This document shows, piece after piece, positions 15,071 to 15,548 of a stretch of DNA of 15,548 nucleotides. A program made the position numbers and the translations under genes. Each line of letters starts with the position of its first letter. The first letter of the stretch is position 1. The notes beneath the pieces are model-generated. The model made no database searches, had not been told where the DNA came from, and was given only the letters and a program-made list of their open reading frames with translations. Origin of the DNA: a virus (taxonomy: Duplodnaviria > Heunggongvirae > Uroviricota > Caudoviricetes); IMG/VR virus record IMGVR_UViG_2636416166_000011; one strand, given 5' to 3'.

Positions 15071-15308
15071 GAAACTGCTGGGATAACAGCCCAATGGAAC
15101 GCTTCTTCAGGAGTCTGAAGAACGAATGGATGCCGGTGGTGGGTTACGTAAGCTTCAGCGAGGCAGCTCACGCCATAACGGACTATATCGTTGGATATTA
15201 CAGCGCACTAAGACCGCACGAATATAACGGTGGGTTACCCCCAAACGAATCGGAAAATCGATACTGGAAAAACTCTAACTCGGTGGCCAGTTTTTGTTGA
15301 CCACTTCA
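15071..15308 (+). mobile_element. IS3-family (IS911-like) element, right-end fragment only (about 238 bp), cut on its left by IS66
   Basis: Contains the C-terminal 75 codons of an IS3-family OrfB transposase and ends with a terminal inverted repeat whose reverse complement at 15308 reads TGAAGTGGTCAACAAAAACTGGCCACCGAG, which I recall as the IS911 terminal repeat. IS3-family ends are 5'-TG...CA-3'. Confidence 0.65.
15073..15300 (+). pseudogene. IS3-family transposase OrfB, C-terminal fragment (5'-truncated)
   Basis: In-frame translation from 15073: [75 protein letters not shown]. The DN..ME.FF..LK.E motif carries the third catalytic glutamate of IS3-family DDE transposases. No start or upstream catalytic region (interrupted by the IS66 right end at 15070). 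Confidence 0.7.
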
Positions 15309-15548
15309 CCCCTTCTCATTCAGGCCACGGATAATGGTGGTGTACAGACCATCCTGCGTGCTCAGTGACGGCGGGAATGAAGTTTCAATCGGACGAACAA
15401 CGACCACGCCAGAATTCAGATCGGTGTGCTCATTCAGGAGATCGATTTGCCAGTCAACAAAGGCGCGCAGGAAGTTACCTTCACCAAACTGAATGATACG
15501 TTCTGGATACTGTGCACCGGGAATATCGCGACGATTTAGTGTTTTCAC
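15309..15548 (-). pseudogene. uxaB: Altronate oxidoreductase (tagaturonate reductase) UxaB, N-terminal 80 codons only; 3' part removed at the IS3-family element end
   Basis: Minus-strand translation from the window edge (GTG at 15548..15546) [80 protein letters not shown] matches my recollection of the E. coli UxaB N-terminus (mannitol-dehydrogenase family Rossmann fold). The stop codon ending the ORF at 15306..15308 is the terminal TGA of the IS element, not a native stop; the full protein is about 480 aa. Confidence 0.7.

Follow-up and report, generated by a model that had tools for sequence, protein, structure and literature searches.

A uxaB remnant ended by an IS911 inverted repeat and joined through an IS66-family element to prophage tail genes in Shigella boydii

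The window, which is the whole stretch of 15,548 nucleotides that was analysed, carries at its right edge a dead uxaB gene that very probably belongs to a Shigella boydii chromosome and was made by several insertion-sequence (IS) events. In its sequence, uxaB is fused through two IS pieces to half a prophage (Table 1). This is textbook, ordinary IS-driven gene decay in S. boydii, and the sequence, the arrangement and the 80-aa open reading frame (ORF) are already in public records; in that sense the finding is known. Mildly unusual are only a target that resembles an inverted repeat, with putative serial one-sided deletions, and a possible error in a metabolic model.

The truncated uxaB frame and the elements that follow it

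The minus strand starts with a GTG codon at the window edge (15546-15548) and reads GTG AAA ACA ... AAG GGG from 15548 to 15309, followed by TGA at 15308-15306; the truncated ORF (15306-15548, minus strand) is therefore 80 codons and a stop. When compared with nt 1-240 of E. coli uxaB, taken from strain 120899, in which the gene also starts with GTG, the 240 coding bases of the stub were identical at 239 positions (megablast E=8e-122), the single mismatch being T25A (F9I). The product matches NCBIfam NF002969, tagaturonate reductase, over positions 1-78 of 482 with E=4.8e-36. Its score of 124 bits lies under the curated cutoff of 359 for the sole reason that the ORF is truncated. In place of a full-length ORF of about 483 aa with a Mannitol_dh_C domain there are 80 codons and then TGA, and the stub is a pseudogene remnant. 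A neighbouring 486-aa protein of the Mannitol_dh family, the sole paralogue nearby, was considered as a second uxaB and rejected, being YdfI-like and only 27% identical to UxaB.

Table 1 Features of the window (positions in the 15,548-nt stretch).
Feature	Position	Strand	Evidence
Lambdoid, ipaH-associated prophage tail module: Z, U, V, G/T, tape measure, M, L, K, I, J, Lom	1..12419	-	
Phage head-tail joining (FII-like) gene, 3' remnant cut by the IS66-family element	12404..12564	-	VL46 homology
Complete IS66-family element, 2,506 bp	12565..15070	+	NCBIfam matches, ends, full-length copies
IS66-family tnpA	12651-13070		NF047595/NF038385
IS66-family tnpB	13067-13417		NF033819
IS66-family tnpC (transposase)	13448-15040		NF033517
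IS911 3' remnant, last 238 of 1,249 bp	15071..15308	+	238/238 identity to IS911 copies; NF033516
IS911 right inverted repeat (IRR; 36 bp), tip at 15308	15273..15308	+	Identical to the IRR of complete 1,249-bp copies in relatives
TGA stop of the truncated ORF, formed by the outermost three bases of the IS911 IRR	15306..15308	-	Sequence itself
uxaB (tagaturonate reductase / altronate oxidoreductase), codons 1-80	15309..15548	-	239/240 nt, NF002969, deposited product

Directly past the stub, the minus strand reads TGAAGTGGTCAACAAAAACTGGCCACCGAGTTAGAG, which is the right inverted repeat of IS911. The native gene continues at this point from GAGAAGGGG into GAAGCGGTCAGCGAC, whereas in the window GAGAAGGGG is followed by TGAAGTGGTCAACAAA; the IRR tip, TGAAGTGGTCAAC, runs leftward from 15308. 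Related genomes carry 1,249-bp elements whose IRR-proximal end is identical to the segment 15071-15308 at all 238 positions; these elements are themselves 99.9% identical to those annotated in RefSeq as 'IS3-like element IS911'. A plus-strand ORF at 15094-15300 encodes the C-terminal 68 aa of OrfB and matches the IS3-family transposase model NF033516 at positions 317-368 of 369 (E=4e-11). Both inverted repeats, orfA/orfB and a duplication of 3-4 bp would mark a complete IS911; the window has the last 238 bp only, and the left limit of this piece (15071) abuts the right end of the IS66-family element at 15070. Neither the uxaB match nor the IS911 match is due to chance.

These results uphold what the initial annotation had proposed from the letters: that the 80-codon ORF is UxaB (nucleotide alignment and NF002969 match), that it is cut after codon 80 by an IS911 end (the IRR tip abuts nt 240) and that its stop codon is the IS terminus, the tip beginning where the TGA lies. 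The remaining codons of uxaB, about 403, are likewise absent on this side, as had been stated, and their place is taken by the IS911 remnant, the IS66-family element and phage DNA. A Shigella lineage had also been suggested, and S. boydii CDC 3083-94 is indeed among the Shigella from which the exact 80-aa product has been deposited, under the name 'altronate oxidoreductase'; it occurs on 576 contigs. The annotation is refined in three respects: IS911 is here a 238-bp remnant cut by the IS66-family element, relatives in which IS911 is whole do not show a simple insertion either, and the 3' part of uxaB was most probably deleted. The upstream neighbourhood of uxaB (dgcF/yneF, yneG, glsB) falls outside the window and is kept in 99.9%-identical loci (L006, L009, L035).

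The IS66-family element has imperfect terminal repeats of the GTAAGCG type that start GTAAGCGT and match at 25 of 40 positions, the outermost 8 being identical, and full-length copies in E. coli are 99.4% identical to it. No 8-bp target duplication was seen around the element when its flanks, AAAATATC and GAAACTGC, were compared. The element thus marks a rearrangement rather than a simple insertion, either a deletion or a recombination between two copies. Meetings of the two IS families recur elsewhere. Near bcp and the hyf operon in CP000036.1 (L014) and CP026731.1 (L017), at 7597-8672 of these loci, the same IS66-family element abuts an IS3-family element with IS911-like gene sizes, so that the pairing is found at a second site. 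In E. coli 14EC047 (L002 1083-4528), an ISEc23-type IS66 element, 87% identical to that of the window, lies inside an IS911 copy at a different position, a separate instance of insertion of an IS66-family element into IS911.

On the far side of the IS66-family element, homology to the intact prophage of E. coli VL46 ends inside the 'head-tail joining protein' CDS of the latter. The tail module is decaying, with L and J frameshifted in the window. In J (window 2347-2377, minus strand), a 1-nt deletion near 2363 relative to four relatives (L049, L035, L038, L040) splits the tail-tip protein of about 1,150 aa into ORFs of 721 and 418 aa; the deletion is private to the window, where it is a genuine frameshift unless it stems from a sequencing error. 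In gpL (window 5861-6559, minus strand), the reading frame of minor tail protein L is shifted by an additional G at gene position 186, which leaves a 66-aa N-terminal ORF and a remainder; the change is common to L006, L009 and L011 and absent from L008 and L012. About 2.5 kb past the left end of the window, CP000036.1 carries a chromosomal ipaH (L049 12585-14336; 583 aa, LRR_TTSS and NEL) just beyond the tail-fibre genes; the same ipaH adjoins IS4 and tam in relatives with a complete IS911.

Three states of the locus and the loss of the 3' part of uxaB

The junction of the IRR with uxaB nt 240 is common to many S. boydii genomes, in which it occurs in three states. In State A1 (L003, L005, L007 and others), a complete IS911 stands in place of uxaB nt 241-489 (249 bp), and the order is uxaB-5', IS911, uxaB from nt 490, yneE, tam, IS4, a tail-fibre-assembly remnant, ipaH, IS1 and ydfI. 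In State A2 (L004 10241-11489, CP026762.1), the left inverted repeat (IRL) side joins nt 565, so that nt 241-564 (324 bp) are missing, while the IRR junction and the remaining layout are as in State A1. Both losses, of 249 and 324 bp, are multiples of three. State B is the arrangement of the window and was found in CP000036.1, CP026811.1, CP026766.1, CP162080.1 and several drafts at 99.9% identity. It extends in CP000036.1 (L049), which we take to be the S. boydii Sb227 chromosome, through J, Lom, the tail fibre, a DUF4376 gene, ipaH, IS1, ydfI, ydfZ, ydfH and ydfG to dcp. No junction of IS911 with uxaB was found by megablast in complete E. coli RefSeq genomes, and the junction of the IRL with uxaB nt 490 was not found in a collection of species-representative genomes, in which Shigella is probably folded into E. 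coli.

Since the IRR junction never changes among the states whereas the IRL side does, this junction is the old one, and the sequences suggest that the IRL side was hit by repeated adjacent deletions. The fixed junction at nt 240 together with the variable IRL side, in three states, is a ready lineage marker within S. boydii. Complete IS911 copies at uxaB in the relatives have no target duplication, as expected for adjacent deletions mediated by transposase, whereas other IS911 copies in related loci do show duplications of 3-4 bp (GGTG/GTG, TAT).

Three other ways of producing the arrangement were weighed against loss by deletion. A plain IS911 insertion with a 3-4 bp duplication, the 3' part of uxaB lying just past the element, would account for the intact IS tip that abuts uxaB cleanly, and duplications of this size do flank other IS911 copies in related loci. 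In the window, however, IS911 ends after 238 bp at the IS66-family element, beyond which lies phage DNA, and the duplication is missing, together with 249 or 324 bp of uxaB, even where relatives carry IS911 whole; this reading is ruled out for the window by the sequence itself, and we give it hardly any credence. The locus is also a classic spot for misassembly, with three repeat families within 3 kb, and a chimera could arise from collapsed IS repeats. Yet the same arrangement recurs base for base in more than 10 independent assemblies, several finished chromosomes among them, and the 99.9% identity of the window to complete-genome loci means that it is not an assembly artefact; a chimera has next to no probability. 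An inversion between two copies of the IS66-family element, which would have moved the 3' part of uxaB, yneE and tam elsewhere and implies a reciprocal junction of the IS911 5' part, IS66 and phage head genes, deserves slightly more weight but is still very unlikely. Shigella genomes hold many copies of the element, and its lack of a duplication also fits recombination between two of them. Against this, the two outer flanks follow the order and orientation found in the relatives that have kept uxaB-3'-yneE-tam, which is not the pattern an inversion leaves; the 312-aa ORF of the uxaB 3' part was not seen in State B assemblies among the 10 places listed; and none of the ten contexts listed for the identical IS66 transposase, all of them unrelated insertion sites, contained such a junction or uxaB-3' beside the element.

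The collinearity is seen on both sides. L003 3128-10478 aligns to L035 1-7351 on the dgcF side, and L003 15541-20243 (DUF4376 remnant, ipaH, IS1, ydfI) aligns to L049 11930-16632, each pair in the same orientation, so that States A and B differ only between IS911 and the tail-fibre region. The exact 312-aa ORF occurs on 23 contigs only, which are of the complete-IS911 type or are 3-kb contigs bounded by repeats, and a search of proteins by homology to the 312-aa fragment hit nothing but clusters of full-length UxaB and some odd fusions, the fragment itself not being among them. In the lineage of the window, the 3' part of uxaB was thus most probably deleted with yneE and tam rather than displaced.

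Deletion, the reading we prefer, would have proceeded in four steps, whose order we infer. At the outset an IS911 end was joined exactly after uxaB nt 240, its tip TGA closing the frame as seen in the window. DNA beside the IRL was then lost, as the relatives show (nt 241-489 in most of those with a complete IS911, nt 241-564 in one), probably through the transposase. The third step is marked by the IS66-family element, which sits 238 bp inside IS911 and abuts the truncated FII-like gene on its other side. Lastly, judging from the flanks that are collinear with relatives carrying uxaB-3'-yneE-tam (the dgcF-yneG-glsB side and the side of the tail-fibre gene, ipaH, IS1 and ydfI), the 5' 1,011 bp of IS911, uxaB nt 490-1452, yneE, tam and the early and head half of the prophage would have been lost. 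The simplest ancestor would have had the order uxaB-5', IS911, uxaB-3'-yneE-tam, a prophage (int...head...FII-Z...J-lom-stf-tfa) and ipaH; from it, State A would have lost most of the prophage beside IS4, and the loss in State B would have taken place beside the IS66-family element. No genome was found in this ancestral state, with uxaB::IS911 beside a complete prophage. The most similar prophage that is intact, that of E. coli VL46, was rejected as a model for the ancestor because it lies at mlrA and not beside tam-yneE-uxaB.

Resemblance of the insertion point to the IS911 tip

The uxaB sequence displaced by IS911 resembles the tip that displaced it. In uxaB nt 240-252 (GGAAGCGGTCAGC, L001), 10 of 13 positions match the IRR tip at window 15296-15308, in register and in the same orientation, and because of this resemblance a BLAST alignment with uxaB continues for 10 nt within the IS. 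When both strands of uxaB are counted, 3 of 2,880 registers (~0.1%) reach 10/13, and the junction lies at one of them. We considered microhomology-mediated recombination of uxaB nt 241-252 with the IRR as the origin of the joint and rejected it: the complete IS tip is kept, and its first T has no counterpart in uxaB, from which we conclude that the joint was made by transposase strand transfer.

Of the IS3-family elements, IS911 is the one with a documented dual target specificity (PMC9333248 and PMC3299598, which cite Loot 2002 and Rousseau 2007). Its first mode is ordinary insertion; its second is integration beside IS911 ends, which is suppressed by OrfA (PMC9333248, PMC3299598). Junctions of IRL with IRR are reactive and promote further rearrangements (PMC9333248). 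It is possible, if doubtful, that the insertion point was chosen for the IRR-tip resemblance of uxaB nt 240-252. An original insertion at nt 240 would leave 2-3 bp between the IRL tip and the IRR-like sequence and so mimic an IRL-IRR junction. Such a junction of the IRL with an IR-like sequence would be reactive, which would explain why DNA was lost on the IRL side, the IR-like sequence first and apparently more than once. In its full form, this account has IS911 drawn to nt 240 by the IRR-like GAAGCGGTCAGC, and the recombinogenic junction of IRL and pseudo-IRR driving at least two IRL-adjacent deletions; we regard it as rather unlikely. The deletions, to nt 489 and to nt 564, would have been independent or successive, while the IRR junction stayed fixed.

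That the tip resemblance is a coincidence and the insertion site random seems to us the probable explanation. Only the outermost 13 bp are alike and the internal part of the IR, which is the part of the IS911 IR bound by the transposase (PMC3299598), has no counterpart in uxaB; a better tip-like site at uxaB nt 666 (TGAAGTGGC, 9 contiguous matches) is unused; the resemblance was noticed post hoc; and the other IS911 copies in related loci show ordinary duplications. What speaks against coincidence is the rarity of the match, the junction falling on one of so few sites with register and orientation both correct, and the IR-directed target mode documented for IS911 (PMC9333248, PMC3299598).

Predicted consequence and relation to known systems

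In the Ashwell pathway, UxaC, UxaB and UxaA act in turn on the way to KDG, UxaB reducing tagaturonate to altronate. Little of the N-terminal dehydrogenase domain and nothing of the C-terminal one remains in a stub of 80 residues; on this pathway, D-galacturonate catabolism should be blocked, and D-glucuronate catabolism via UxuB/UxuA is predicted to be unaffected by the uxaB lesion. In the metabolic models of Hawkey et al. 2020 (S13 Table, supplementary file 19; PMC7373316), the S. boydii reference model grows on D-galacturonate (value 1), and S. sonnei and S. dysenteriae are scored as unable to do so. If the S. boydii model was built on the Sb227 genome, its galacturonate prediction conflicts with the destroyed uxaB and may be an annotation-driven false positive. 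Our literature search for uxaB or galacturonate together with Shigella returned nothing specific. Of some practical value, besides the lineage marker, are the full enzyme name 'altronate oxidoreductase' that the stub carries in deposits and the galacturonate prediction of the S. boydii model, which on this locus should fail.

The ordinary side of the locus fits what is described for the genus. Among the five IS that have expanded throughout Shigella, S. boydii Sb227 included, is IS911, and the expanded IS drive convergent loss of metabolic and catabolic genes (PMC7373316). The window resembles the IS-mediated pseudogenisation described by Hawkey et al. 2020 in that a catabolic gene was destroyed by IS911, and uxaB is unmentioned in the main text of that paper (PMC7373316). 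It adds one more catabolic gene lost to insertion sequences in host-restricted Shigella, which by itself has little weight.

Compared with the uxaB locus of E. coli (EC 1.1.1.58, 483 aa; neighbourhood tam-yneE-uxaB-dgcF-yneG-glsB), the first 240 nt and the upstream dgcF-yneG-glsB-sad are conserved, whereas codons 81-483 are gone, and with them the remainder of the N-terminal domain and the entire Mannitol_dh_C domain; yneE and tam are missing as well. With the published S. boydii locus (CDC 3083-94, ACD08070.1 / UniProt B2U1H1), the window shares the 80-aa product residue for residue. The IS911 remnant, the IS66-family element and the tail genes of the prophage all recur in CP000036.1, with 99.9% of nucleotides identical, and the window differs from that locus by six private substitutions (2377, 2530, 3910, 3958, 7130, 12925) and by the 1-nt deletion that frameshifts J; the uxaB stub has no private change.

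The comparison with IR-targeted insertion, as known for IS911 (and IS30), is a divided one. Here the resemblance is limited to the terminal cleavage block, without the transposase-binding part, and the putative junction of the IRL with the IR-like sequence has been deleted in every genome seen. Like a targeted insertion, however, the IS911 tip lies where the target resembles the IRR tip (10/13), and its orientation would have turned the original IRL towards the IRR-like sequence, in the geometry of an IRL-IRR junction. The locus is a possible natural example of end-directed targeting by IS911 and, if this reading is true, a natural record of the IR-targeted pathway.
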